Positions 3,001-56,734 of a DNA stretch of 64,000 nucleotides are shown one piece after another (positions within the stretch are counted from its first letter, which is position 1; each line of letters starts with the position of its first letter). The notes beneath the pieces are model-generated. The model worked only from the letters and a program-made list of their open reading frames with translations, was not told the DNA's origin and made no database searches. A program made the position numbers and the translations under genes. This DNA is from a virus (taxonomy: Duplodnaviria; Heunggongvirae; Uroviricota; Caudoviricetes): the IMG/VR virus record IMGVR_UViG_647533160_000003; one strand, 5' to 3'.

Positions 3001-4570
3001 GGCTCTGGACAAAGCCGATCAGCTTATGGGGCAAATGGGTGAAAGCTCTAAGGCTACGGTATCGTTTGATCAGTCTCTTCGCGATACAACAAAATCGCTA
3101 ACTGATTTGGCTAATGCGGTTCCTAACGAGTTCATCACTCAAGAGATGATCGACAAGGCGAAAAAACGTCTTGAAGACCTCAAAAATGCGACACCTGAAT
3201 ATCGCGAGATGTTTAATCGCCGCAATGTTGAGCAGATGATCTCCACTTGGGCACCGGAGGCGGATTCCATTATTAGTGCTGGCTATACGCCGTCTCGTGA
3301 AGAGAAAGTTGCTGATTTCGAAGACACCTACAACCGCAATCTCAAAGCGTTGATAGAACTTCGTGATAAGGCGTCTGATCCTAAAGTCGTGGCGCTTTAT
3401 ACAAAGAAAATCAATCAACTTATTGCTGCTGGCAATACCGCGCTTATTAAAGAGACGGGGACTGCGACGCAGAAGTTGGCACTGGAATACGAAAACCTGG
3501 CAGAGCAGATCGAAAGCACCTGGACTGATTTGTTTAGTGGCTTAACTGATGTCCTGACTGATTTCGTTATTAACGGGAAGATGAGCTTCTCCAGCCTGTC
3601 TCAGTCCATTTTGAAAGATATCACCAATATGGTCGTGAAGTCGCAGATCACGCTGCCTCTAATGAACATGTTGGGGATGGGAACCACCGCAGCTGGTAGT
3701 TCACAGAGTGGTAATTTGCTGACCGGGGTTGCTTCCGCCGTTGCCAATCAAGGGGTACGAATGGGCAACACTGTTAACGGCGACAAGTCGGTAGGAGAAG
3801 CCACGAAGGAGACGTCCAGTTCGGTAACTGGATTGGGGCAAACGACACAGCAGACCACCAGCGCAATTGGCACAGCAACAAATGCGATTGGTAGCTGGGT
3901 ATCAGGGCTATTTGATAGCACCGAAGCCAAAGATGCTGAGACAAAAGCAGTGAAGGATTCCATCTTCTCGATGCAGAACCTCAGCTCTGTTACCGGTGCT
4001 CTGTCTGCCGCGTTTGCAATGCTTGGAGCTAATGCTTCCGGCTCTGGTAATAAGTGGTTGAATTTCGGCGCGACAGTTGCATCTGGGTTGGTTTCAGTAT
4101 GGGCAGGTGGTGGTTTCGACAGTGTGACATCAAGCTCTGCTAAAACCGCAACTAGCAGTGTGGCTGACGGAACTAAAGGCATTCCTGCAATCCCGAAGTT
4201 TGCAAATGGAGGAATATTCGGAAAAGACGGCGTGATCCCGCTCCGGGCATACCAGAAAGGCGGTATTGCTAACTCACCTCAATTAGCGTTGTTTGGGGAA
4301 GGTTCTATGAATGAGGCGTATGTTCCATTGCCTGATGGCCGAACAATCCCTGTAACGCTCAGTACCGATGGTATGAGTGGAGGCGGAAATGTTCTTTCTC
4401 CTGTATCAATTGAGATCAACGTCCATAGTGACGGTAGCACGACAGAATCCGGCGATACAGAAAGCATATGGAACAATGCTGCTAAACGGGTGAAAGCCGT
4501 CGTACTTGAGACTATCGCTCAAGAAAAACGCCCTGGCGGATCACTCAACCCAAACACTCAACGTAACTAA
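5..4570 (+). CDS. tail tape measure protein (1521 aa)
   Basis: Very long ORF directly upstream of lambda-type tail-tip genes; coiled-coil-rich composition with central hydrophobic segments and Gly/Ser-rich C-terminal part. ATG at 5 is at the window edge so upstream context is unseen. Confidence 0.8.
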   Translation: MSQNVEFILSLEDKQFTASIDRAGKLLTRFGEQVTKPAQKIQTFERSLGSVARIIGVLESKLDSTADKLQDVAAGFELASDATRKMRGNITSLNSGLKALIERVDTTTSSVDKLTASLRKVQSELNDFSDWATYASKSASRFGTEVKEASASVSGMNTRLNTTTKRLSNWGVTTTQAAEGLKKVREQMDEVIGRQQLISKPVRVRTSGSGDGGSGSRQRSGASGHSGKSNEGGMFSGLRGNIFLLGEIGDAARTVTDIMFGWQKPIVEAAAEMERMRVMLRGLNKEKSNPGQAAADDMKYIVDMAQNAPFAMQALTDSFVKFRSAGLDPTDGSLKALVDSVARFGGDSELLKRAAVAVQQMSGKGVVSMEELRQQLGEAVPNAMQAMADAAGITMGELTKAVASGTVEAKQALSLMFVGLRAENENAAKDMMQTYTGALAQLQTSFTLFADRVGQAGYLDSLSKGMKELASIMNSAEGISFANSLGSGLTTAIDGLRQLAQWLAKNQELVINLGKVVAAMVAFKLMRAGIMGVVGAGSQMVSTFATMATAIQTPFNLGATAVTRFNRAARMGLAPIPSLIFAIRGAITGLKGAFAGLTAFIAANPIGAAFTVATVAVAGLITYMTMLRSETSKVVDEIRKIPEAMTAAKRAQMAEYKARLEQQITQKEQELKSGEKVVYGPGMAGTTVKINQDERKRIENELNDLRKKRDKTTGAIERGDIAVAKRLAKDAAESQIEKIREENRDFAATFAKARQEALEKIQKINDDDSLSDDEKNKLLAPLRETVNKSYLEPAQKLVDSLSSRKNATEKQIATLNDQLEKAKKEGNTEQIKKLQGSIRGYQENLEVVAQELTQAEFERDNAAKTGKGVMSNQGTVLGLGTTDKAAQKALAQYMRNQMDSATYQRTLPDGTPMMDFEGKPIIGPKQLKTQLNLQKASSASSLEKMSDEERAAAIAALTKAREQDAAAAEKAAQRSANASQRAAKKEQAAQQKLAAGYQKALDKADQLMGQMGESSKATVSFDQSLRDTTKSLTDLANAVPNEFITQEMIDKAKKRLEDLKNATPEYREMFNRRNVEQMISTWAPEADSIISAGYTPSREEKVADFEDTYNRNLKALIELRDKASDPKVVALYTKKINQLIAAGNTALIKETGTATQKLALEYENLAEQIESTWTDLFSGLTDVLTDFVINGKMSFSSLSQSILKDITNMVVKSQITLPLMNMLGMGTTAAGSSQSGNLLTGVASAVANQGVRMGNTVNGDKSVGEATKETSSSVTGLGQTTQQTTSAIGTATNAIGSWVSGLFDSTEAKDAETKAVKDSIFSMQNLSSVTGALSAAFAMLGANASGSGNKWLNFGATVASGLVSVWAGGGFDSVTSSSAKTATSSVADGTKGIPAIPKFANGGIFGKDGVIPLRAYQKGGIANSPQLALFGEGSMNEAYVPLPDGRTIPVTLSTDGMSGGGNVLSPVSIEINVHSDGSTTESGDTESIWNNAAKRVKAVVLETIAQEKRPGGSLNPNTQRN

Positions 4571-4948: not shown

Positions 4949-5030
4949 GTATCTGGATAAGTAAGTACTAATTTACTATCATTGTGGCGCTGACAGGATG
5001 TTAGCGCCTACTTATTTCAAGGATGAAACA

Positions 5031-17257: not shown

Positions 17258-17338
17258 TAGGTAAGTACACACCTACAACAATAGGGTGAAATGTGATATA
17301 AATCCGCCATCCCGATTTGACTTTTCATGGAGGAAAAC

Positions 17339-31448: not shown

Positions 31449-31660
31449 TCGTATTAAGTAAACGGGAGAAAGAAACGCTTCATGAAATAAGTAAGTGGCC
31501 GGAGTTCCCTGAGTACTGGAAGCCTAAAACGCGAGCTAAGTTAGAGCGTTTAGGGTTGGTTGCAAACGTTTCTGAAACGTGGCGCTCGGCCAACTACCAG
31601 TTAACTGATAAAGGGAAATTATTGCTACAGCAATTAGTAGAATCAGGAGCCTTTAAATGA
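31445..31660 (+). CDS. hypothetical small protein (71 aa)
   Basis: Start overlaps ligase stop; no motif recognised. Confidence 0.35.
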   Translation: MIVLSKREKETLHEISKWPEFPEYWKPKTRAKLERLGLVANVSETWRSANYQLTDKGKLLLQQLVESGAFK

Positions 31661-31805
31661 TTCCATACATCCCATTGGCTTTTATGGCTGGCTTCCTTAT
31701 CGGCTTCGGCATCTGTCATGATTTGATTAAGCAGGAACTTAAAACCAAAACACTGTGCATCGGAAAGCGCGTGTATCGAGTAGTTCATGAAACAAAGGTG
31801 AAAAA

Positions 31806-32131: not shown

Positions 32132-32873
32132 ATGTATAAGATGACTTTGTTTTCGTTGAGACGCGACTGTTTGAACTTAAATACAAGTGCAAACGAAGAA
32201 GTCTATCTGGCAGTAGCCTAATAAGCCAAACACCAGCGAGGTCAGTTTCCAGCCTCGTTACCGAAATGGGACACACTGAGCGAGTGTGATTGCAGAACGC
32301 AGGAGGGAACATGAGAGTTCCCTCCGATGAAGTAACAGAATGGGCGGTCAGTATATTTTCAACTCATATACGACTCCCGGATTCTTAGCCAATGACCGCC
32401 CATCCTGTTACGTCATTTTGTTCAATTATGTCGTTTATACTGGGTTAAAAAGCGGCGACGTAGCCCGGCTGGTATGGTTAGCCAGCACACAACGTTGAGG
32501 CCATTATATTTTTATCAATTCTAAGGTTCTATTCACAGAGATACCGGCGAGCGTTGATATGTAACATGTTGGGCAAACATTCAATCGGAGTAGTGGCCTC
32601 AACGTTGTGAAGACAGGATTGTTGTATAGGTTTAACCACTGTTGCCATTAGTGCCTGTTTTCACAACAAATGATTCCATACATCACATTGTATAAATTAC
32701 AAAGTAGGTGCTGTCCTCAGAAACATCATCTACTTAAAGATTTTGCCTTCTATTGAGCGAAGTCGAAAACGTCTGGCACTAACGGAAAGTGCCAGTAGCG
32801 GTGTGTTTCCTGGCAGAAACTAACACCGCCGCGATTGGCACTGTTGAGTAATAAATACTGGCAGTGCTGAATT

Positions 32874-32948
32874 GATGGTGTAGCTCAGCGGTAGAGCAGT
32901 TGGCTGTTAACCAACTGGTCGGTGGTTCGAATCCACCCACCATCGCCA
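32874..32948 (+). tRNA. tRNA-Asn (anticodon GTT)
   Basis: Cloverleaf by hand: acceptor GATGGTG/CACCATC, D-arm GCTCAGCGGTAGAGC, anticodon stem GTTGG/CCAAC with loop CTGTTAA, T-arm GGTGG-TTCGAAT-CCACC, encoded 3' GCCA. Confidence 0.8.
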
Positions 32949-32953
32949 ATTTA

Positions 32954-33040
32954 GGGGAGTTAGTCCGTAGAGGTAGCGGGACAGACTGTAAATCTACTGT
33001 CATTGCGACTCGGGTGGTTCGACTCCATCACTCCCCACCA
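32954..33040 (+). tRNA. tRNA-Tyr-like (anticodon GTA), long variable arm, imperfect anticodon stem
   Basis: Acceptor GGGGAGT/ACTCCCC, loop CTGTAAA, long variable arm, T-loop TTCGACT, encoded CCA; anticodon stem has two non-Watson-Crick positions, so it may be atypical or a pseudo-tRNA. Confidence 0.55.
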
Positions 33041-33044
33041 AATT

Positions 33045-33120
33045 GCCGGTTTAGCTCAGTTGGTAGAGCGCCTGCCTTGTAAGCAGGATGTCAGCGGTTC
33101 GAGTCCGTTAACCGGCACCA
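33045..33120 (+). tRNA. tRNA-Thr (anticodon TGT)
   Basis: Acceptor GCCGGTT/AACCGGC, D-arm TAGCTCAGTTGGTAGAGC, anticodon stem CCTGC/GCAGG with loop CTTGTAA, T-arm AGCGG-TTCGAGT-CCGTT, encoded CCA. Confidence 0.8.
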
Positions 33121-33344
33121 ATACAACGATAAGATCATTACGGTTAATCGTCGTTCATGTGCACAATGACTGGTCGAAAGGTAGTGATCTTACCGTTGTG
33201 GTGGATTCGCAGACTGATGCGATAGCTTTCTTGGATGTTAGGGAAATGCGGCCGCAAATCTTCCCTTTCGCGAGCGGTGATCGTCCGTAGTCCTAATTGG
33301 CTGCACCGTATGCCGGAGATTCAGTACCGGCCACCACAACGGCC

Positions 33345-33431
33345 GGAGAGTAGGGAGCATGGTGCTCAAGCGGTCTTGAAAATCGTCCCATTGTGCAAAC
33401 GATGATGGTTCGATTCCATTACTCTCCGCCA
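33345..33431 (+). tRNA. tRNA-Ser (anticodon TGA), class II with long variable arm
   Basis: Perfect 7-bp acceptor GGAGAGT/ACTCTCC, anticodon stem GCGGT/ATCGT with loop CTTGAAA, long variable arm, T-arm GATGG-TTCGATT-CCATT, encoded GCCA. Confidence 0.75.
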
Positions 33432-33588: not shown

Positions 33589-33608
33589 AGGGGCTTCGGC
33601 CCCTTTTC
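33589..33608. terminator. GC hairpin with TTCG loop, probable bidirectional terminator
   Basis: AAGGGGCTTCGGCCCCTTTTCTT; on + strand follows the tRNA cluster, on - strand lies right after the stop of the 403-aa gene (33610). Confidence 0.55.
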
Positions 33609-33609
33609 T

Positions 33610-34821
33610 TCAAAAAAGTTTTATAAATTCATAATTCTGGTCAATTAAGGATTCAATACACACCATGCAAAAATCTACATCGTTAAAATCAGGTGTGTAA
33701 TATTCATCCTCATAACATTCATTTAGACCTTCAATCAATTTTTCTTTAAAAACTCCCCACGTTTCAATATGAACCATTTCCATATAAGGCGCATGTGTAT
33801 GTACTTGCAATACATCCCAGGTGTCTATAACCTCGATCCGCGGCTTGCAATTAATTTTTTCTAAATATGCCCTCCCAGAATTGTAAATTTTCGACATTGA
33901 TGCCCCAAAACCTGATGGTTGGTAATGAGTGTAAATGTCATAAATTTTTTGTCCTATTCTAGGGAGTTGAGAAGCATTGGATATTTGTGGCGAATGAAAG
34001 TATCGCTCTATGGAAGAAAACGCAGAAACATTAACTAGAGTAATCGTATATGGTGCTAAAGTTCTCTCGTTCAAATTTCTACATAAAATAGCAAACCCAT
34101 GGCTATTAGTCTTTTCACCGTCTGAGGACATTTTTGCCATGCTGGCTTTAATAACATTCAATTTCGAATGTAAACGAGAAGTGGAAGTCGGTTGATTATA
34201 CATTTCATCATCATACAAACATATATGAAACCCGCCAAGATGACGAAATGAGAACTTGAGTGCTTCTTCCGCAATAACTAATTTATTAATATCTAAAGGA
34301 GTAAGTGATACGTTACCTTGTAAATCATAGCAAGGTTCTAAACATAGAAAGTTTTTCTTCTGCCACACGATCATATTAAAAATAAAGTGTCTAACCAAAG
34401 GTGGCCAGTCAGGTGATATAAGTACATTGGTAATATCTCCATCAGACAAGTATGACAAGTAACTTTTTAGTTCCGCAGCATATGCCACTAGCTCAGTTCC
34501 AGCTTCCCTTGTTGGTGTTGAAAAATTTTTTAACTCAATAAGAACTAAGGATTCATTCTCTGTTGAATAAGCAACGACATCAGGTCTTAATATCTCAGAT
34601 TTTGTTGCTGAGATATTCTCATCATCTGTCATTAAATGTAACAATGTTATGTTCTTTAAACAAAACTGATAACTCTCCTTAATTTTTTTCTCTTCGGGTC
34701 TTTTCGGATTAAATTCATTTAATTTATCAATATTGATGATTGAATTATATAATCCATCTTGATCAGATAATTTGTCAATTATCCAATTTTGCATTTCCTT
34801 TTCGCTTAAAAATATTGACAC
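33610..34821 (-). CDS. hypothetical protein with N-terminal PD-(D/E)xK-like nuclease motif (403 aa); second gene of AT-rich accessory operon
   Basis: Motif RPDVVAYSTENESLVLIELK (aa ~79-99) fits a restriction-endonuclease-like core; hand-counted sample lines are about one-third G+C versus about one-half in neighbouring core genes; 26-nt gap to upstream gene on same strand. Confidence 0.55.
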   Translation of the reverse strand: MSIFLSEKEMQNWIIDKLSDQDGLYNSIINIDKLNEFNPKRPEEKKIKESYQFCLKNITLLHLMTDDENISATKSEILRPDVVAYSTENESLVLIELKNFSTPTREAGTELVAYAAELKSYLSYLSDGDITNVLISPDWPPLVRHFIFNMIVWQKKNFLCLEPCYDLQGNVSLTPLDINKLVIAEEALKFSFRHLGGFHICLYDDEMYNQPTSTSRLHSKLNVIKASMAKMSSDGEKTNSHGFAILCRNLNERTLAPYTITLVNVSAFSSIERYFHSPQISNASQLPRIGQKIYDIYTHYQPSGFGASMSKIYNSGRAYLEKINCKPRIEVIDTWDVLQVHTHAPYMEMVHIETWGVFKEKLIEGLNECYEDEYYTPDFNDVDFCMVCIESLIDQNYEFIKLF

Positions 34822-34847
34822 TAATTAGGCTCCCGTTAAACCAAAAA

Positions 34848-35669
34848 TTAAAAATCTTGCTTTACTTTATCCATGGTCAGAATTTTGCTAATAATTGAAG
34901 ATTCAAATCCATCTAAACCTGAGAGAAAGTTAATTAGCTTTTGGATATGTTGTTCTTTAGGTATAAGTATATATTTTATATCATTGAACTCAAAATCAAT
35001 GCCAAACTTTGAAAATTTTGAGCTAATTTTTGCTTTGTCATCAGAAGTGATAACACGCTCCAAACTCAGACTAGGCCATAAATCACCAATAAAAGGAGCT
35101 GGCACATAACGCCACTCTTTCTCGTCTGCATATATATAATTCTCTATTGTTTTATTATCTTTTCGCTCTAGCTTGCCTCTGTAATTTTTCATATAACGCA
35201 GTAAATTATATAGATCAGAATATTCTGCTTTCAATTTCTCAAACTCTATTCTGTTTTTGGTATCTAAATTTCCTCTAGCCTTCCAAAGCGGCACCAACTT
35301 ATTTTTAATAAGTCGAATTCTGGCATTGTATTTAGAAAATATTTCACTACTCTTATTCATATATAGAACTGGGTGTAGACCTTTCTTTTCCGCCCAAGAC
35401 TTAGTTAGCCCAAGACCGAATTCTCCATATTTTCCGCTATGATCTCTGATTTGTGATAGTTTTATGTCACAAAACGATACCATTGGTACTGCAAACCTCC
35501 TGCGTCCCCCGACTCCTCTTATTTCCTCGCGAGCAAGAAATGGTTTAAAATATTTCTCAGCCAATATGCTATAGAAAGCATCTTCGTTTTTTGTAAAATG
35601 AAACAACGTGGTTGGATGAAGACTATAAACAGATTCAACATTCGCATCAGGATTTTCAAGGATAGTCAT
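34848..35669 (-). CDS. hypothetical protein (approx 273 aa); first gene of AT-rich accessory operon
   Basis: AT-rich ORF co-oriented with the nuclease-motif gene; probable start at Met16 of the track ORF (MTILENPD); no motif recognised. Confidence 0.5.
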   Translation of the reverse strand: MTILENPDANVESVYSLHPTTLFHFTKNEDAFYSILAEKYFKPFLAREEIRGVGGRRRFAVPMVSFCDIKLSQIRDHSGKYGEFGLGLTKSWAEKKGLHPVLYMNKSSEIFSKYNARIRLIKNKLVPLWKARGNLDTKNRIEFEKLKAEYSDLYNLLRYMKNYRGKLERKDNKTIENYIYADEKEWRYVPAPFIGDLWPSLSLERVITSDDKAKISSKFSKFGIDFEFNDIKYILIPKEQHIQKLINFLSGLDGFESSIISKILTMDKVKQDF

Positions 35670-35958
35670 TTTACACCTTGTGGAAAGCCAGTTTAGTTCT
35701 GTAAATAGTATCACACGACAGGCGGCTATTCTTCTATCAATAAATGATAGGTAAGCACTTACTTTTTACGCACGTTAACTGTATAGTTCTTTCGGATACT
35801 CACTTGAAAGGACTCAATATGGGAAATAAATGTAAACATGCGCGTCGCGCATCTCGTCAGGTGCAGAAGTCAAATCCATACATTCACGAGCACTACCACC
35901 TCAGCTCTTTCACTAACCGCTACACGTTCCCCAGCGAAGCGCATAACGAGGCAAAGCA

Positions 35959-36229: not shown

Positions 36230-36371
36230 ACATGAAAGTGTGCGCTCAAATCAACTATATCTATGAAAAGGACAGTTATAAATATTAAAAATATCTAAAA
36301 TCCCTTCCGATATATGAATTATCAGATTAAAATTTCACACAATGTGCTTTTAATGAGTTATTATTTCACCT

Positions 36372-36996
36372 NNNNNNNNNNNNNNNNNNNNNNNNNNNNN
36401 NNNNNNNNNNNNNNNNNNNNNNNNNNNNNNNNNNNNNNNNNNNNNNNNNNNNNNNNNNNNNNNNNNNNNNNNNNNNNNNNNNNNNNNNNNNNNNNNNNNN
36501 NNNNNNNNNNNNNNNNNNNNNNNNNNNNNNNNNNNNNNNNNNNNNNNNNNNNNNNNNNNNNNNNNNNNNNNNNNNNNNNNNNNNNNNNNNNNNNNNNNNN
36601 NNNNNNNNNNNNNNNNNNNNNNNNNNNNNNNNNNNNNNNNNNNNNNNNNNNNNNNNNNNNNNNNNNNNNNNNNNNNNNNNNNNNNNNNNNNNNNNNNNNN
36701 NNNNNNNNNNNNNNNNNNNNNNNNNNNNNNNNNNNNNNNNNNNNNNNNNNNNNNNNNNNNNNNNNNNNNNNNNNNNNNNNNNNNNNNNNNNNNNNNNNNN
36801 NNNNNNNNNNNNNNNNNNNNNNNNNNNNNNNNNNNNNNNNNNNNNNNNNNNNNNNNNNNNNNNNNNNNNNNNNNNNNNNNNNNNNNNNNNNNNNNNNNNN
36901 NNNNNNNNNNNNNNNNNNNNNNNNNNNNNNNNNNNNNNNNNNNNNNNNNNNNNNNNNNNNNNNNNNNNNNNNNNNNNNNNNNNNNNNNNNNNNNNN
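36372..36996. other. run of 625 N (assembly gap or masked sequence)
   Basis: Uninterrupted n characters; ORFs translated as X across it are artefacts. Confidence 0.99.
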
Positions 36997-37760
36997 GAAA
37001 TGTTTCTACCACGGTGATAATCCATTCCATAAACCGAATCAATTCCTGAGTTCACTATCTTCATCTGAATTTCAAAAAAATCATTATTTAAATCAAAGTA
37101 AACAATAGGGACCTCATATCTTCTGCTAGAAAAATCCATTGGTGATAGATAGTTAAGACCATTTGCACTGACCTTCACTTGAATTCCAGCCTGTATACCT
37201 GAATTCGACGTTGGAGCAGAAATAAGTAATTGAGAAAGTGGGTCTCGTTTGTCTATCCACACAATGTCCCGTTGAGTATCATTAGGTTGATATTTAGTAG
37301 GATAGTTAATTTTCGTATAGTTGAGTCCAGTCCCAACAGCTTTATAATTAGACAAACTATCTGTGAAAGGGGTATATCTCTTTGCTAATAATGCCCAGTT
37401 TTCATTTTGTTTCGCGTTTTTTTCACATTCTTCAACAATGAGTGCTTCCGCAATTTTACCTAATATTCTCATAGTTGTTTTATGGGGATCTAGTTCGATA
37501 ATGATGTTTGACTTGATCACTCCTTCTTCATTAATACCAACAAGACCTAACTCTTTATCCATGAGTTCAAATAAATTTTCCCCATGCTCAATTGCTAACA
37601 AAGCTGAAGGTCGTGATAATAATGAAGAGTTATTCCAATCTCCGAGGGAGATATCCAGACCTAAATCAATACCTTTAGTCGTCACTACTAGCTGAGGTTT
37701 GGGAGGCGTAGCCCCTAATAACTCAGATAGCGTGTTGACTTCCGGTGTCTCTTTTATCAT
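36997..37760 (-). CDS. hypothetical protein, 5' portion only (3' end lost in N run)
   Basis: AT-rich minus-strand ORF starting MIKETPEV at 37760 and running into the N run after at least 254 codons; no motif recognised. Confidence 0.45.
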
Positions 37761-38034
37761 TTTTCTTATCCTGTTGCAGCGATCGCATGACAATACTATA
37801 AAACCAGCCATTTTCAAGTAAATCAATTACCTTTTAGGTGATGAAGATAAAAGTGAAGCCAACCCCTCCGTTCGAAAAGATAGATTCAAAAAAATCGCCC
37901 CCCAATGATTCCATACCTACTATGTATGGAATCATTACTGAAAATGAGTTACTTTTACTCTTGATCCTATAAGAATCTATGCCTAATATACTGTTTACTT
38001 ATACAGTGCATCGGCGTAACTCGGTGATTGTCAT

Positions 38035-39138
38035 ATGAAAAATAGCTTTGACAGAGCACGCGCTGCGGAGAACACCTCAAAAGAGGCGATTGAGTATCTC
38101 GAAAGAGCATCTCAAATGCAGGCCGTTATGATCTCCCAGGTCAGCAATGACATGAGATTCTCGGACGCATTCATGTTATTCACTCGCTTATCTCTGCTGA
38201 TAACAAGACGTCGGCCAGAGATCGCTGTTCATTGTATTTTGATACATGTTTTGCCGCACATTGCCGATGTAAAAGTAAGTGATATTAATAGGTTCATGGT
38301 GAACCAACTGGTCAACCCACTAATACTGGATGGCAAAATTGTTATGGGTCGCCGCGTTTTCTCTCTGATGAAGCAGTTCCTCAGCTGGTGCGCCTTCCAG
38401 GGGATGATCGACGTGTCACCGTTAAACGATATGTCACTTAACAAAGTTGCCGGTGGCGCAAAGCCCACACCTCGCGAGCGGAAGCTGACCGACGCAGAGG
38501 TATGGGTGTTCTGGAATATATGGGACTACTTCAATGTGTGTGCTGGTACAAAATGGGCGGCCAGGCTATGTCTTGTATCCGCAAGACGACCTGACGAAGT
38601 ACTGCGGGCTAAAAAAAGTGAGTTCAATCTTAAGCGTGGGGTTTGGAATCAAGGCAAGAGGAACAAATCTGCCCGTGAGCATTCTCTGCCTTTAAGCTCA
38701 TTAATGCGCACATGTATTGAAGAGTTGTTCGAATATGGTAAAGACAGCCAGTGGCTCGTGCCTTCGAATAAAAAAATCGGGAAAGACCTTCCTATGTCTA
38801 AAGTGGCAATAGCCCAGGCATTACGTCGTATTCTGGAACGACCAGAACTGATGGAGCTTGAGCCATTTACACCCCGAGATTTGCGCCGTACTGCGCGTAG
38901 TTACTTCCCAGCATTAGGCATAAGCCAGGAGGTATCACGTAAAATCATGAACCACAGTCTTGAGGGGATAGATCGGGTCTACGACCGGCACGATTATATG
39001 GACGAGATGCGAGACGCCTTAGAAAGTTTCTCGACGTACATCGCATCAATCGTAGAGCAACCGGATTTAGACGAAATTGACCACAAATTTAAGGGAGATC
39101 GTCTATCAACAGAGCTTATTCGTGTAAATTTTTCATAG
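38035..39138 (+). CDS. int: tyrosine recombinase / integrase (P4-like family)
   Basis: C-terminal catalytic blocks: R in VSARRPDEV, FTPRDLRRTARS (box II-like), NHSLEGIDRVYDRHDY containing the likely Tyr nucleophile. Confidence 0.75.
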   Translation: MKNSFDRARAAENTSKEAIEYLERASQMQAVMISQVSNDMRFSDAFMLFTRLSLLITRRRPEIAVHCILIHVLPHIADVKVSDINRFMVNQLVNPLILDGKIVMGRRVFSLMKQFLSWCAFQGMIDVSPLNDMSLNKVAGGAKPTPRERKLTDAEVWVFWNIWDYFNVCAGTKWAARLCLVSARRPDEVLRAKKSEFNLKRGVWNQGKRNKSAREHSLPLSSLMRTCIEELFEYGKDSQWLVPSNKKIGKDLPMSKVAIAQALRRILERPELMELEPFTPRDLRRTARSYFPALGISQEVSRKIMNHSLEGIDRVYDRHDYMDEMRDALESFSTYIASIVEQPDLDEIDHKFKGDRLSTELIRVNFS

Positions 39139-39525
39139 AGACTTTATGGCCTCAACAACCTTTTGTGATGCGCCTTTCTCTTTACCGAATCGCTCGTTAT
39201 ATGCAGCAAGAACCTGTTTTTCGTCCTCGTTAAGAGGAGCAGTGCCTTCTTTGTATAAAAATGCTGCGAGTTCGGGTTGGCGTTCTTCCAGCACCATCAT
39301 CATAAGACGACTTGGCTCAATACCCAGTGCCAGCGCCAGCGGACGAACCTTATCGATAGGCAAAGGAATTTTGCCGCTTTTAATTAAAGAAAGGTTGTTG
39401 GCGTTTTTATACCCAATTGTTTTGGCTATCTGGGCCTGGCTCATAGGTGAGGATTCAATCAACCCTGCGATAAAAGCAGCGTAGCGACTTTCTATAAATT
39501 CAATCTTGTTATCAGACATGGTCAC
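39133..39525 (-). CDS. HTH (XRE/Cro-CI-like) transcriptional regulator
   Basis: Helix-turn-helix segment SQAQIAKTIGYKNANNLSLIKSGK; convergent with and overlapping the integrase 3' end by 6 nt. Confidence 0.6.
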   Translation of the reverse strand: MTMSDNKIEFIESRYAAFIAGLIESSPMSQAQIAKTIGYKNANNLSLIKSGKIPLPIDKVRPLALALGIEPSRLMMMVLEERQPELAAFLYKEGTAPLNEDEKQVLAAYNERFGKEKGASQKVVEAIKSL

Positions 39526-39770
39526 AACCTTTGCGCGTTCAATTCTCTCTGGTAAGTGCTTACCGATATTACATCAAAGGTTAGGGTTGTAAAGCTATTA
39601 TCATTTTTTTCGATAGGCACTTAAAAGACCGGTTAAAGGCCATTGCACGGAGAAAAATTAGCCCAAAATAGGTAAGAAAAGTAACTTGCATATGATATGA
39701 ATGTATTCAGTATTGATACAAATTTTAGTAGTATTCCTTACCATAGTATAAGTTAGAATGGATTGATTGA

Positions 39771-39983
39771 ATGAACACCACTATTTCCAGCCTAATCGCT
39801 CTTGAGATCGGACACGTACAAAAATTAGCTGTTGAGTGTGTAACAGACATCCTTACCGATCTACCGAATGAGCAGATTCAGGTTGGTGTGAATGACACCA
39901 CTGGCTTTATATTCGAACTTAACAACAAACGCTTCACGCTTCTCAATACCGGCTCCGGGTCTTTAGCCGTCAGAATCTGTTAA
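39771..39983 (+). CDS. hypothetical small protein (70 aa)
   Basis: ORF with ATG start; no motif recognised. Confidence 0.3.
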   Translation: MNTTISSLIALEIGHVQKLAVECVTDILTDLPNEQIQVGVNDTTGFIFELNNKRFTLLNTGSGSLAVRIC

Positions 39984-43701: not shown

Positions 43702-46700
43702 ATGAAGGCTCTGATGGTTCGAACTGACTTCTCTCTTGGGGAGTCGGCTCTAAAAGCAGAAAACGCGGTGAAGATTGCCAGAGAAGCTGGCTACACCGCT
43801 GTAATTTCGGCAGATAGCATGAATATTGCGAGTGTTATTCCACTACAACGTGCCGCTGGTGACGACATGGCGGTTATTTGTGGTGTGAAACTAAACATTG
43901 TTGATGATCCCACATACGAGCACCGGGCTAAACTTGCTAAAGAGTCTATGGGATGTATGGAATCATTAGAGCGTGGGCGGAACTACTCCTTTACCGCTCT
44001 AATTAAAAATGAGCAGGGATATCGAGACATCTGCGAACTAATGACGGCGGCCAACACACGAGAACAGTTCTACTTTGTACCGCGTCTCTCGCTCGAACAG
44101 TTGGTTTCTACATATGCCAAAGGCAACATCATCCTGCTCACTGCCGACATCGGTAGCGTGTACCAACGCAACGATTTTGCAAAAATCATAAGCTCACTGA
44201 TTACAGCGGGTGGAAAAAACAACTTCTATAGTGTGGTTTATCCGCACCCTACCCCATTCTACGACCAGATTAACGTCCGGGCGATGAAAGTCGCCAGCGC
44301 ACTGAAAATAGAGCCAGTAGCGTTCTATCCCGCTTATTACGAATCGATCGACGATGCAGACATTAAAGACATTGCGCACATGGTTACGAACAACATCAAA
44401 ATCGACCAGCCGCATCGTCTGCGTATCCCCCACCAGCGAGATAACGCCGTCAATGGTCGCCGCCATCTCCTTGAGGCGCTGAAAGCCTTCTCCGTTCGCA
44501 TGGATGTGCCGGTAACAGCCGCAATGGCCTCAACAACGCAGGATACCATTATCGATGCCTGCACATGGCGCTGGCATGAATTGCCACCAGCACTGCCAAA
44601 GATGGCAGACGACGAGCCTGCAACGCTGATGAAACTGGCCGTTGCTGGGCTGCGTAAACGTCTTACCACAAAAGAGTTTGGCTACACACCACCGGCTTCT
44701 GAGAACAGGGTTTATGTTGAGCGACTTAAGTACGAAATGGACACGCTTACTCGCCTGGGATTTTGTGGTTACTTCCTGATGGTACGCGATCTGATGAATC
44801 ACAGCCGTGAAACTGGCATTCCTGTCGGGCCTGGTCGTGGTTCCTCCGCTGGCTCTTTGGTGGCATGGTGCATAGGCATAACCAACGTCGACCCTATCCG
44901 TCACGGTCTTCTGTTTGAACGTTTCATCAACCCTGAGCGTCTCGACTTGCCAGATGCGGACTTGGACTTCAGCCAGGCACGTCGCCATGAGGTGATCGAG
45001 TATCTGAATGAACGCTACGGCGAAGATTACGTTGCAGGCATTCCGAACTTCACCTACCTGGGCGCGGCCTCTGCACTACGTGACACCGCTCGTATTTATG
45101 GTGTGGAGTCCGCAGATATGGCGGTATCAAAAGAACTGAAGAACGTCGAGGATGATAGCCTTCCATTGGAAGAGCTGCGCGAACAACTGGCAAGCCTCGA
45201 CAAATACGCGACAAAATATCCTGATGCATTCAATGCAGCCTGCAAGTTACAAAGCCTTATGCGTGGCTATGGTAGACATGCGGCAGGGATGATCGTAGCA
45301 GGTGTTCCTCTGACAGAACGAACACCGGTTGAACGACGTGGTGACGCGCGTTGTATCGCATTTGACAAGCGTTACTGCGAGGCTATGGGCCTAATTAAGC
45401 TGGACGTACTTGGCCTGGCGACTCTCGATTTGCTCGATAGTGCAAAACGCTACATTAAAGAGAACACAGGTGAGGATATCAATCTTGATGCCATTTCTCT
45501 TGAAGATCGCAAGGTGCTGGATGGTTTTGCTGCTGGGTACACTCAAGGTGTTTTCCAGCTTGAATCAGGCCCAATGCGCAAGCTGCTTAAAGATTTAGGT
45601 GGTGGAATTGAGCCAATGAGCTTTAAAACGGTCGTTGCTACGACTGCGCTCTTCCGGCCGGGGCCAATTCAGTCAGGCATGTTGGATGATTATGTTTCTG
45701 TCGCCAAAGGCTTTATGACGCCGGAATCATTACACCCCGTTCTTGATGAACTTACCGCAGAAACAAATGGCGTGATTCTCTATCAGGAACAGACGATGAA
45801 CGCGACTCGATTGCTTGCCGGCTTCACAATGGCTGAAGCTGACGGCGTTCGTAAAGCGATCGGCAAAAAAGACATGGAGAAAATGAAGAGCATGGGTGAG
45901 AAGTTCATCGTTCAGGCTCAAGCTGGCTGGATCGACGTTGAGCTGGAAGATGGCACTACACAGCGCATTCACCGTGCGGAACATTTTAAATGCGAAGACG
46001 GAACTCTGAAAACTGTCGAAGAGGCACTTGAGTTCGGTGCAAAACTACCTATAAACGCAGTACGCGTTACAGCGTCACATCCAGGGCTATCAGAGATGAA
46101 AGCGAAGGAGATCTGGACCGCATTCGAAAAGAATGGTGCCTACCAGTTCAACAAATCACACTCTGTTGCTTACTCCTTAATCAGTTATCAATCTATGTGG
46201 TTGAAAACTCATTATCCCGCAGAGTTTTTCGCTGCTGCTCTCACTATTCTTGGCGAAGATAAACACCAGGGGCTGGTTAAAGATGCGCTGACCTATGGTA
46301 TTCGCGTATTGCCACCAGACGTTAACGTGTCATCTAACCGAATCGAGATCCGCACGCTTGAAGATGGCAGCCAGGTGCTGTATGCGCCCTTCTCTGCTGT
46401 GAAGGGGTGTTCTGAGAATGGCTGCCAGGCCATCATGAGAGCGCGAGAAAAGGTTGGCGGCAAATTCGAGTCACTTGCGCAATTCGAAGAAGCTGTCGAG
46501 AAACGTGCCTGTAATAGTCGAGTGCGCGAATCGCTGCAAAAAGTAGGGGCGTTTGCATCCATCGAGCCAGGTAGTCTGCCAGCAACTGATCCAGAGCGCC
46601 TCCGCGACCAGGCTGAATTGATGGGAAACCTTGTCATAGATGCAGTTAAAGCCTCACGTCCGTTTGAGATGAACCCCAAACGTTCGGCTGAGATTAACGT

Positions 46701-54937: not shown

Positions 54938-54983
54938 ATGCAAACTGACTGCGGCACGTGCCGCAGTCATATTTCATAGTCGT

Positions 54984-55518
54984 CACCGCTGACAGCATAC
55001 ACAATCAACTGCCGCTGATAGCATATCGAGAGTCTATCTCACCGCTCACAGCATACTTTACTCGATTTTTTACCGCTGACAGCATACTTAAGACATTGCA
55101 TGAATAATATGTCCCGGTATGGGTATAACCAGAACAAAATTACCGCTGGCAGCATACGAAGGTCTGACATATACCATTAATTACCGCTGATAGCATATCC
55201 AAACAAAAATTCCTCAATAAAACACCGCTGACAGCATACGTTCTATCAGAGAGCAGCAGGCAATAAATGCCTTTCACTACAAGCAATCAGCGCAATGGCA
55301 ATAGAATGTTAGTGAGCGCAAACCTTTATGGAATGCACTCTTCGAGGTTAGTAACCACTGGGGAGGTATGACAGAGCATTGAGTGGTGATAGATGATTAA
55401 CCGCTCACAGCATACGTTTATCTCACTATACCGCTGGTAGCATATCTTTTAACCGTTCACAGCATACTTTTCAGGAAAATAGCCGCTGATAGCATACATT
55501 TCACCGCTGACAGCATAT
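54984..55518. repeat. iteron array downstream of repA (12 direct repeats, core ACCGCTGACAGCATAC)
   Basis: Copies start at 54985, 55012, 55041, 55072, 55142, 55183, 55224, 55400, 55430, 55452, 55482 and 55503 with irregular spacing and single-base variants (GAC/GAT/CAC/GGC/GGT); last copy abuts the repA stop. Confidence 0.8.
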
Positions 55519-56632: not shown

Positions 56633-56734
56633 ACCGCTGACAGCATACTTGATTTGCCGCTGGCAGCATACCAAAAACAGTTGGCAGCATACGGCGAACC
56701 GTTGACAGACTATCAATTACCGCTGGCAGCATAC
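56633..56734. repeat. iterons upstream of repA (3 good plus 2 degenerate copies)
   Basis: ACCGCTGACAGCATAC 56633-56648, GCCGCTGGCAGCATAC 56655-56670, ACCGCTGGCAGCATAC 56719-56734, plus degenerate copies near 56681 and 56698. Confidence 0.75.

Follow-up and report, generated by a model that had tools for sequence, protein, structure and literature searches.

The window analysed here, the whole 64,000-nucleotide stretch of IMG/VR record IMGVR_UViG_647533160_000003, belongs to an SSU5-like phage-plasmid (SSU5/pHCM2/pMT1-type), in which the genes for a tyrosine recombinase (int) and a helix-turn-helix (HTH) protein of the XRE fold face each other tail to tail. Our analysis suggests that this locus is probably the recombination and immunity corner of the element, with a simple Int recombinase and its lox-like site, SOS control of Int, and an HTH lysogeny repressor. 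Comparison among relatives ties the site to int, argues against integration, and shows the LexA box, the gene overlap and a set of half-sites to be conserved; catalysis, resolution, LexA binding and operator binding by the HTH protein are predicted from the sequences. In the proposed mechanism, Int would act on one 33-bp site (13-7-13) ~100 bp upstream of int and would convert plasmid-prophage multimers to monomers, as Cre/loxP does for P1, possibly also circularising or tidying replicated genomes. With a LexA box in its promoter, Int would be produced chiefly when the SOS response is on, and that response is also what induces the phage. The HTH repressor would be expressed in the lysogen, probably autoregulated via a GGTAAGTGCTTACC operator on its own promoter, and would probably also bind related operators ahead of several early operons. 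The features at the centre of this proposal are as follows.

37880-37903, no strand: semi-conserved left flank of the site, AGAwTT plus an A-tract, present in both specificity classes.
37904-37936, no strand: putative core recombination site, 13-7-13, a perfect dyad AATGATTCCATAC-CTACTAT-GTATGGAATCATT.
38035-39138, + strand: int, tyrosine recombinase, 367 aa (open reading frame (ORF) list, Pfam, PHROG, structural model).

Positions 37800-39800 were 100% identical to several E. coli plasmids of ~111-113 kb, such as pLH09-a-C (111 kb), and 98.5% identical to phage Cyrano (= pLF82, an SSU5-like phage-plasmid). DNA-level matches to this segment were found in 612 plasmids of PLSDB. An earlier note on this DNA, made from the letters alone, had described a plasmid-type element, and the identical E. 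coli plasmids bear this out.

The dyad lies 98 nt upstream of the int ATG, with perfect inverted arms of 13 nt and a spacer of 7 nt. Its arms were invariant in six lineages, including the elements of E. coli, Y. pestis (pMT1), S. Typhi (pHCM2), Klebsiella and Enterobacter, while the spacer varied; beyond ~25 nt to the left, the six lineages carried unrelated cargo. An exact-pattern scan found the dyad in 114 IMG/VR contigs, with int 46-102 nt to its right wherever the fetched DNA reached that far. A degenerate pattern applied to GTDB, one genome per species, found it in 58 species, and int lay 41-149 nt to the right in 57 of them. Two specificity classes were apparent. Class I arms (TGATTCCATAC) were paired with Int proteins at 56-100% identity to that of the window, and class II arms (TGACTCCAGAC) with proteins at 45-52% identity; the two changes that distinguish class II are mirrored in both arms, and the spacing is still 7 nt. 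Class II was found mostly on megaplasmids of 250-700 kb from Pantoea, Rahnella and Erwinia, where int mostly lacks an HTH neighbour, so the dyad goes with int and not with the HTH gene. This linkage, together with arms that co-vary with the int clade, indicates that the dyad is Int's own putative core site, at which catalysis would take place.

The earlier note had proposed the HTH protein as a candidate binder of a recurrent dyad motif. Two motifs proved to be involved. One, ATGATTCCATAC, travels with the recombinase and not with the HTH gene, and for it the proposal is not supported; the other, GGTAAGYRCTTACC, lies on the HTH promoter, is enriched in intergenic DNA and is gone where the recognition helix differs, and for it the proposal is plausible.

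At least 13 natural spacer variants were found, and even close relatives can differ in which way round the entire site lies with respect to int (CTATTAA/TTAATAG and CTATAGA/TCTATAG are examples). Such flips, of 31 nt with the spacer included, were seen in both specificity classes (loci L062 vs L007, and L068/L093/L115 vs L027/L064/L127; for class II, L152 vs L176). Immediately right of the right arm, at 37937-37940, 2-3 nt vary among otherwise identical E. coli elements (ACTG, GCTG, AGTG, CGTG, AGTA). On the other side, the AGAwTT/A-tract, 10-30 nt left of the arm, is common even to the Pantoea elements, and homology to other elements stops either in this flank or at 37904. The flank may be an accessory element of the site.

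Int carries the Phage_integrase domain (PF00589, E = 2.9e-10, 40.6 bits against a cut-off of 27.1) and belongs to the PHROG integrase family phrog_1 (E = 5e-47). A central SAM-like core-binding domain (PF22022, Phage_int_M), recorded for many relatives, scored 22.8 bits, below its cut-off of 27. Homologues of 360-380 aa across Enterobacterales combined PF22022 with PF00589 and never carried the arm-binding domain PF13356. The next-best matches (at most 34% identity, 400-464 aa; P0114-P0120) were true P4-type integrases with PF13356. Residues 1-72 of Int matched no Pfam family even at E up to 1, and a sequence search of the PDB returned no match. In the AlphaFold2 model (predicted local distance difference test (pLDDT) 85) the N-terminal half is all-helical. 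Foldseek gave 30 matches at E ≤0.001 (best ~7e-7); the folds matched included the lambda Int core, Tn1549 Int, XerA/H and IntI (2a3v, a generic fold match), with Cre weaker (E ~0.01-0.05). The catalytic residues R185, K211, R284, H307 and Y316 are conserved. Int thus appears to be a 'simple' tyrosine recombinase of P4-integrase descent, with P4-derived core-binding and catalytic domains and the arm-binding domain lost. The label 'P4-like' in the earlier note is apt in that P4-type integrases are the nearest outgroup (25-34% identity), and misleading in that PF13356 is absent family-wide.

Three roles had been suggested for the recombinase: integration, multimer resolution, and cassette exchange at the adjacent AT-rich island. 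The island itself was correctly recognised (GC 0.32-0.38 at 34-38 kb vs ~0.45 elsewhere). Among 5,426 complete E. coli genomes, 252 carry the int module, at 254 places, all of them plasmid (0/254 chromosomal). A 41-nt query spanning the site matched only those plasmids and no chromosome in these genomes. Att-like repeats and identity to tRNA 3′ ends were sought at the island borders and none was found; the only repeat spanning the island was the half-site/dyad motif described below. Integration was therefore not supported, and with neither chromosomal copies nor an arm-binding domain, Int is taken to be non-integrating. In PLSDB, 940 plasmids carry the module, 906 of them typed as non-mobilizable.

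Multimer resolution was the best supported of the three roles, by analogy to Cre/loxP. A scan of 113 kb for a XerCD dif/cer-like site, with XerC and XerD arms 6-8 nt apart, gave a single match with five mismatches, inside a coding sequence, and the annotation of the 99 kb of pLH09-a-C that were examined lists no further site-specific recombinase. The module also occurs on single-replicon megaplasmids of 250-700 kb, which fits a resolution role. Together with the simple-recombinase architecture, this makes resolution the most economical explanation, and Cre/lox-like multimer resolution is our best reading of what Int would do. Cargo exchange at the island is possible, since a variable cargo slot abuts the site.

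Two further features lie between the site and int.

37961-37989, + strand: putative int promoter, −35 TTGATC (37961-66), 17-nt spacer, −10 TAATAT (37984-89).
37989-38008, no strand: predicted LexA (SOS) box, TACTGTTTACTTATACAGTG, beginning at the last base of the int −10.

Both promoter hexamers were invariant in the six lineages. They match the consensus at 8/12 positions, and the threshold of the promoter scan was 9/12, so this promoter falls below its reporting level. The LexA box has the pattern TACTGT-N8-ACAGT and is the sole CTGT-N8-ACAG in the window. It was present in 42/46 distinct upstream regions from the clade with Int at ≥80% identity. In the 55-59% clade it was present in 8/15 upstream regions, near consensus (TACTGTATATACATACAGTT) within surrounding sequence that had diverged. 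The scan of plasmid DNA turned up a single further LexA box that is convincing, being AT-rich and close to a promoter; it precedes a umuD-like S24 peptidase gene. This second box, TACTGTTTATCCATACAGTA, lies outside the window in pLH09-a-C (L013 28870-28885), upstream of the 129-aa peptidase and beside metG and apbC. For Cyrano, published data show that int RNA rises in macrophages at 6 h from log2 6.07 to 10.3 (~19-fold), an environment that the Cyrano authors regard as SOS-provoking, and that ciprofloxacin induces virions 39-fold. Taken together, int is probably under SOS control via LexA, whose binding is predicted from the box.

The HTH gene converges on int from the other side.

39133-39138, both strands: tail-to-tail overlap of 6 nt (from the sequence).
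39133-39519 (ATG, 128 aa) or 39133-39525 (GTG, 130 aa), − strand: XRE-fold HTH gene, putative lysogeny repressor (ORF list, model).
39566-39593, − strand: HTH promoter, TTTACA (39593-88), 16-nt spacer, TAATAT (39571-66).
39551-39564, no strand: palindrome GGTAAG-TG-CTTACC, putative autoregulatory operator, directly downstream of the HTH −10.
35750-35763, no strand: second operator-like copy (GGTAAGCACTTACT), upstream of the small-ORF/grxA operon.
17260-17273 and 62388-62401, no strand: further operator-like copies, in promoter regions.

The two genes, their orientation and their overlap had been described in the earlier note, and the ORF coordinates and the sequence agree. The overlap is 6 nt because both genes end over the same six bases: int ends in TCA-TAG at 39133-39138 and the HTH gene in CTA-TGA on the opposite strand, each stop codon being the complement of the partner's last sense codon. 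All 80 distinct class-I sequences with both genes had a tail-to-tail overlap, of 6 nt (48), 9 nt (18), 11 nt (9) or 32 nt (5). There is no room for a shared terminator within the 6-nt overlap, and the search for a conserved terminator between or after the convergent genes found only a weak hairpin at 39359-39375, the structure of which was not conserved. As the HTH start, ATG 39519 is more likely than GTG 39525; RefSeq uses it for the identical plasmid, and an AAGG ribosome-binding site lies 7 nt upstream.

In Pfam, the HTH protein matched only HTH_19, below threshold (E = 8e-4), and in PHROG it matched phrog_8 (E = 1e-11); a PDB sequence search gave no match. Its AlphaFold model (pLDDT 77) is all-helical and matches C.BclI, C.AhdI, HigA, SinR, 434 Cro and P22 c2 with template modelling (TM) scores of 0.7-0.8 over 60-77 residues, as a five-helix XRE/Cro-type domain, which bears out the earlier assignment to the XRE type. 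Neither Pfam nor the model revealed an S24 peptidase domain in the 128 aa, so any SOS input would have to be indirect. The family is limited to contigs of ~100-116 kb. In the Cyrano lysogen the gene is expressed 10-fold over the prophage background, and the authors named it a putative repressor. The protein is likely to be the lysogeny repressor.

The palindrome at 39551-39564 is the only perfect copy of GGTAAG-YR-CTTACC in the window, and a copy at the HTH promoter was kept in five lineages (the E. coli, Y. pestis, S. Typhi, Enterobacter and Klebsiella elements). Allowing up to three mismatches, there were 19 matches against 5.4 expected, ~12-13 of the 19 being intergenic by RefSeq annotation; they occur ahead of a parA-like gene, the ligase block, and the grxA, nrdA and cobS operons. 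CP102-type elements have no copy of the motif and K. oxytoca-type elements almost none; their recognition helices read NNLSNIKTGR and NTLSIIKAGK, respectively, vs NNLSLIKSGK. By inspection, sigma-70 promoters showed no consistent register at the motif copies. It is plausible that the GGTAAGTGCTTACC dyad is the HTH operator, a prediction of binding from sequence. A related intergenic motif, AATAAGTAAGTACT, sometimes with flanking GATAG...CTATC, occurs at 4957, 23479, 48716 and 52247 and could represent either another class of operator or a promoter element belonging to the same regulon.

Single copies of the dyad arm recur at a distance from the site.

31656-31670, + strand: half-site 1 (AATGATTCCATACAT), over the start codon of a 50-aa ORF (MIPYI...).
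32669-32683, + strand: half-site 2, intergenic and ahead of the tRNA cluster; a variable region of 5.2 kb lies between it and the dyad.
38641-38651, − strand: degenerate remnant of the int-internal half-site (TGATTCCAAAC), the window copy.
43953-43967 (exact 13-mer at 43955), − strand: dnaE half-site, inside the dnaE coding sequence, codons ~84-88.

With up to two mismatches the 13-mer occurs nine times in the window, against 1.9 expected; five of the nine are exact, two of these being the dyad arms. The half-site consensus is ATGATTCCATACATC (12-15 nt). The int-internal half-site (~+0.73 kb, − strand) has its exact sequence in pMT1, pHCM2 and the Klebsiella, Enterobacter and K. oxytoca elements. 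Both in dnaE (28 distinct sequences) and in int (24 distinct sequences), the 12-mer is the only fully invariant run in its stretch, which argues for constraint at the DNA level. Across >100 loci, copies left of the dyad were on the + strand (~75/75) and copies right of it on the − strand (~90/90), all pointing toward the dyad without exception; as the half-sites form only four positional classes (independent n = 4), the chance probability of this polarity is ~0.125. A cryptic second arm was sought at the half-sites, and the match distribution equalled background, indicating true single arms. No half-site was found in the other 49 kb of the plasmid, even with one mismatch, and none was seen in class-II loci (spans of 5.6-17 kb). 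Polar, conserved half-sites inside coding sequences lie outside the predictions of any standard tyrosine recombinase model.

Between grxA and the dyad, each lineage has its own, unrelated cargo: pMT1 carries the caf1 operon, and other examples are a YafO toxin, RelE/Phd, a colicin-immunity gene and hypotheticals. Among E. coli elements with int ≥99% identical, at least six different left flanks were found, and in ~80% of E. coli matches, taken as a spread sample, homology breaks off precisely at 37904, on the outer side of the left arm. This sharp boundary is explained equally well by Int exchange between elements and by a tolerant insertion zone beside an essential site. In Y. pestis CO92 pMT1, the caf1M-caf1A-caf1 F1-capsule operon (L003 1-3241) occupies the same slot, directly left of the site (dyad 3871-3902). 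In Cyrano, the cargo gene beside the dyad, CYRAN_43, is the most highly expressed lysogen gene, 723-fold over background (PMC9928086, Table 1); the corresponding slot in the window (~36366-37826) holds a different, unannotated gene. Within this island, a run of 625 N (36372-36996) falls in the cargo ORF left of the dyad, where pLH09-a-C, otherwise identical, has only 185 nt (locus L001 7013-7197). The length of the gap may be arbitrary; alternatively, the cargo gene is longer in the window's source (up to ~486 aa vs 307 aa). Further left, at 33610-35714 on the − strand, an AbiGi gene (PADLOC, E = 5e-47) is paired with a gene for a 403-aa protein that is not AbiGii; this partner has no PADLOC match and a weak nuclease-like Pfam match (HSDR_N, E = 0.008). 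Relative to Cyrano, this pair is an insertion, which follows a terminator hairpin at ~33590-33610. The border of this AbiG island was considered as an att/tRNA-end site and rejected, the boundary being the terminator hairpin and not a tRNA end.

Several observations weigh against the proposal of an SOS-controlled, Cre/lox-like resolution system with its own repressor. Resolution alone does not explain the LexA control, the positionally conserved half-sites, or the orientation flips among close relatives. The activity of Int is assumed, and where HxxR should begin with His, all family members have Arg (Arg281, RDLRRT), against HDLRRT in most P4-type outgroups; the residue set is compatible with activity. 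The LexA box was found in 0/5 upstream regions of the CP102-like clade and 0/51 class-II regions and is absent in K. oxytoca. For the extended pattern with one mismatch allowed, ~0.9 matches are expected in the window by chance, so the case for the box rests on position and conservation. The Cyrano RNA-seq was possibly not strand-specific, and many Cyrano genes rise in macrophages. Finally, the assignment of the operator to the HTH protein is built on position and co-occurrence only.

Four other explanations were weighed against this proposal, together with one extension of it. That Int is a classical phage integrase which places the element in an attB of the chromosome, such as a tRNA gene, while the HTH protein serves it as a regulator or in the manner of an excisionase, would fit the annotation 'site-specific integrase' found everywhere, the P4-type outgroup and the element's own tRNA genes 4.5 kb away. 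We consider it very improbable given the 0/254 chromosomal occurrences in E. coli, a site without chromosomal match, the missing arm-binding domain, a symmetric dyad in which lineages differ only in the spacer, and the lack of any Xis-like gene or tRNA-derived repeat. There is equally little to recommend reading the dyad as an RNA hairpin (a terminator or stabiliser of cargo transcripts) or another protein's operator. It could fold into a perfect 13-bp stem with a 7-nt loop, an A/T-tract is near, and a highly expressed cargo gene begins next to it. However, the stem and the T-tract do not adjoin, the spacing is always 7 nt, and the arms stay invariant, with no compensatory changes within class I, while int diverges to 56% identity. 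Moreover, identical single arms that are unable to form hairpins are conserved elsewhere, and the dyad follows int whatever the orientation or identity of the neighbouring genes. Somewhat better placed, though still unlikely, is a platform for cargo capture or exchange with an integron-like layout, in which Int would recombine the dyad with its counterparts on other elements or excised circles, swapping or inserting the accessory genes to the left. The unrelated cargo between grxA and the dyad in each lineage, the six or more left flanks beside near-identical int genes, and the break of ~80% of sampled E. coli matches at 37904 would follow naturally. So would the order of LexA-boxed recombinase promoter, site and cargo, parallel to intI-attI, and the direct repeats formed by half-site 2 and the left arm, which bracket the whole variable region. 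Against this, there is no second full site in the 111-kb plasmid, the half-sites have no second arm above background, and neither attC-like elements nor repeated cassette boundaries were found. Sharp borders are also expected where an essential site adjoins a tolerant zone, the identical breakpoints are phylogenetically non-independent, and what borders the AbiG island is a terminator hairpin instead of a site.

The gene overlap itself suggests a transcriptional alternative, an SOS-triggered convergent switch. Cleavage of LexA would let transcription from the int promoter run antisense over the repressor gene, lowering repressor levels by interference or RNA duplex formation and favouring lytic growth; Int would then be partly a by-product or a coupled function. 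The overlap is present in 80/80 class-I sequences at 6-32 nt, even with a shorter int C-terminus, and int is followed by no conserved terminator. Although the repressor has no S24 autocleavage domain, ciprofloxacin induces Cyrano, and the plasmid DNA scanned has just one other convincing LexA box, ahead of the umuD-like S24 gene. In macrophages, int rises ~19-fold and the divergent early gene ~26-fold, the repressor only ~5-fold. But the repressor RNA does go up there, not down, and no Cyrano virions are made; in addition, the CP102-like clade has the overlap without a LexA box, and gene overlap is commonplace in compact phage genomes. We regard the switch as doubtful, of much the same standing as cargo exchange, and it is compatible with the preferred explanation of an SOS-controlled resolution system. 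The extension concerns the half-sites, at which Int may set up a polar system around the resolution site, either a Ter/dif-like fork trap or a directional or regulatory device on the element's replication genes, SOS-licensed and coupled by convergent transcription to silencing of the repressor. This idea is speculative, and we would give it less credence than either the switch or the cargo platform.

Among known systems, Cre/loxP (P1), Dre/rox, Vika/vox and Panto/pox are the closest in layout to the proposed resolution system. As there, a phage-plasmid tyrosine recombinase without an arm-binding domain is paired with one adjoining site, which has two 13-nt inverted arms and a short asymmetric spacer that varies by lineage, and the expected role is multimer resolution or cyclisation. 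Cre/lox-type sites are recognised by inverted arms of 11-15 nt and a spacer of 6-8 nt near the recombinase gene, and the dyad here is 13-7-13. Cre itself differs in having no detectable sequence relation to Int, and Foldseek places lambda Int, Tn1549 Int and Xer above it. The loxP spacer is 8 nt, not 7 nt, and a published discovery pipeline for Cre-type systems would miss a site with a 7-nt spacer. The window also departs from Cre/loxP in its LexA box, its conserved extra half-sites and the His-to-Arg change in HxxR, and the activity of Int is predicted. The P4-type integrases (P4, CP4-57 and SXT Int; PF13356 + PF22022 + PF00589) share with Int the Phage_int_M domain and the (H/R)DLRRT...NHS...VYDRHDY motifs at 25-34% identity, whereas the Int family is always plasmid-borne and lacks the arm-binding domain, tRNA attB, arm-type sites and Xis.

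Integron IntI/attI resembles the window in the LexA box in the recombinase promoter, the site directly upstream of the gene, and the variable genes that abut the site. LexA control of the intI promoter was reportedly described by Guerin et al. in 2009. The window differs in having no attC or cassette structure, in a site that is a double-stranded symmetric dyad, and in an Int from another, P4-derived subfamily. TnpI/IRS of Tn4430 and Tn5401 is alike in having no arm-binding domain, a core dyad upstream of its own gene, and extra single copies of the motif. Single copies of the 12-bp TnpI motif are said (Baum in 1995 and 1999, Vanhooff in 2006) to include some in the distant inverted ends of Tn5401, with regulatory, non-recombination binding. 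In the window, by contrast, the single copies are 0.7-7 kb away, some inside essential coding sequences, and there is neither a transposase nor element ends. Chromosomal dif is flanked by converging KOPS/Ter sites, and B. subtilis rtp lies beside the inverted TerI/TerII pair. As around the putative resolution site of the window, polar motifs on both sides point toward a dimer-resolution site, and the innermost pair is an inverted repeat beside the gene for its binding protein; the difference is that the polar motif here is the recombinase's own half-site, in only four positional classes.

The HTH protein recalls CI/Cro repressors without a cleavage domain (N15 antirepressor, GIL01; the dispersed operators of P1 C1), being a small XRE-fold protein that is expressed in the lysogen and divergent from an early operon. 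As in that group, an operator-like site lies on its own promoter and related sites are dispersed before several operons, and SOS input must be indirect. LexA-mediated SOS input has been reviewed for phage repressors of this kind. It differs in being confined to SSU5-like elements, in lacking any Pfam model at threshold, in its convergent overlap with a LexA-boxed recombinase gene, and in that no antirepressor was identified.

As genes, int and the HTH gene are nothing unusual: both belong to the core of a known phage-plasmid group and have long been annotated. New here are the cognate site with its two co-varying specificity classes, the evidence against integration, the LexA box and the polar half-sites; the site upstream of int, the LexA box and the half-sites also go beyond what the earlier note saw. 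The literature searched, in which coverage of subscription journals was incomplete, contained no account of what the int/HTH pair does and no description of the cognate site, non-integration, LexA box or half-sites. No relevant paper in it contains the dyad sequence, and no LexA or resolution data specific to SSU5 were found. One of the largest groups of phage-plasmids keeps the int/HTH pair as a lasting part of its core; its members include Y. pestis pMT1 (where the F1 capsule operon adjoins the site) and S. Typhi pHCM2, and the pair is also found in ~5% of complete E. coli genomes. The cognate 33-bp site makes this a directly testable and possibly orthogonal lox-like system, with two natural specificity classes and >13 natural spacers, and the LexA box is a first concrete lead to how SSU5-type elements may sense DNA damage.

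The wider gene order, grxA, variable cargo, int, HTH, small ORF, cobT-like, AAA, dnaE, is kept in pMT1, pHCM2, Klebsiella, Enterobacter and more distant elements. The small ORF was strongly induced in Cyrano under SOS-inducing conditions.

39771-39983, + strand: 70-aa ORF (phrog_2627), divergent from the HTH gene; first gene of the rightward cobT/AAA/dnaE block.

GC skew, searched as a terminus signal, showed no inflection at the dyad and tracked gene orientation, and Rfam found nothing at 31-45 kb except tRNAs. The element has four tRNA genes (Asn, Tyr, Thr, Ser) at 32874-33431; Cyrano has three, without Tyr. Two iteron clusters (ACCGCTGACAGCATAC) lie at 54983-55517 and 56633-56734, either side of the repA region, which is presumed to be the plasmid origin, ~17-19 kb right of the dyad.

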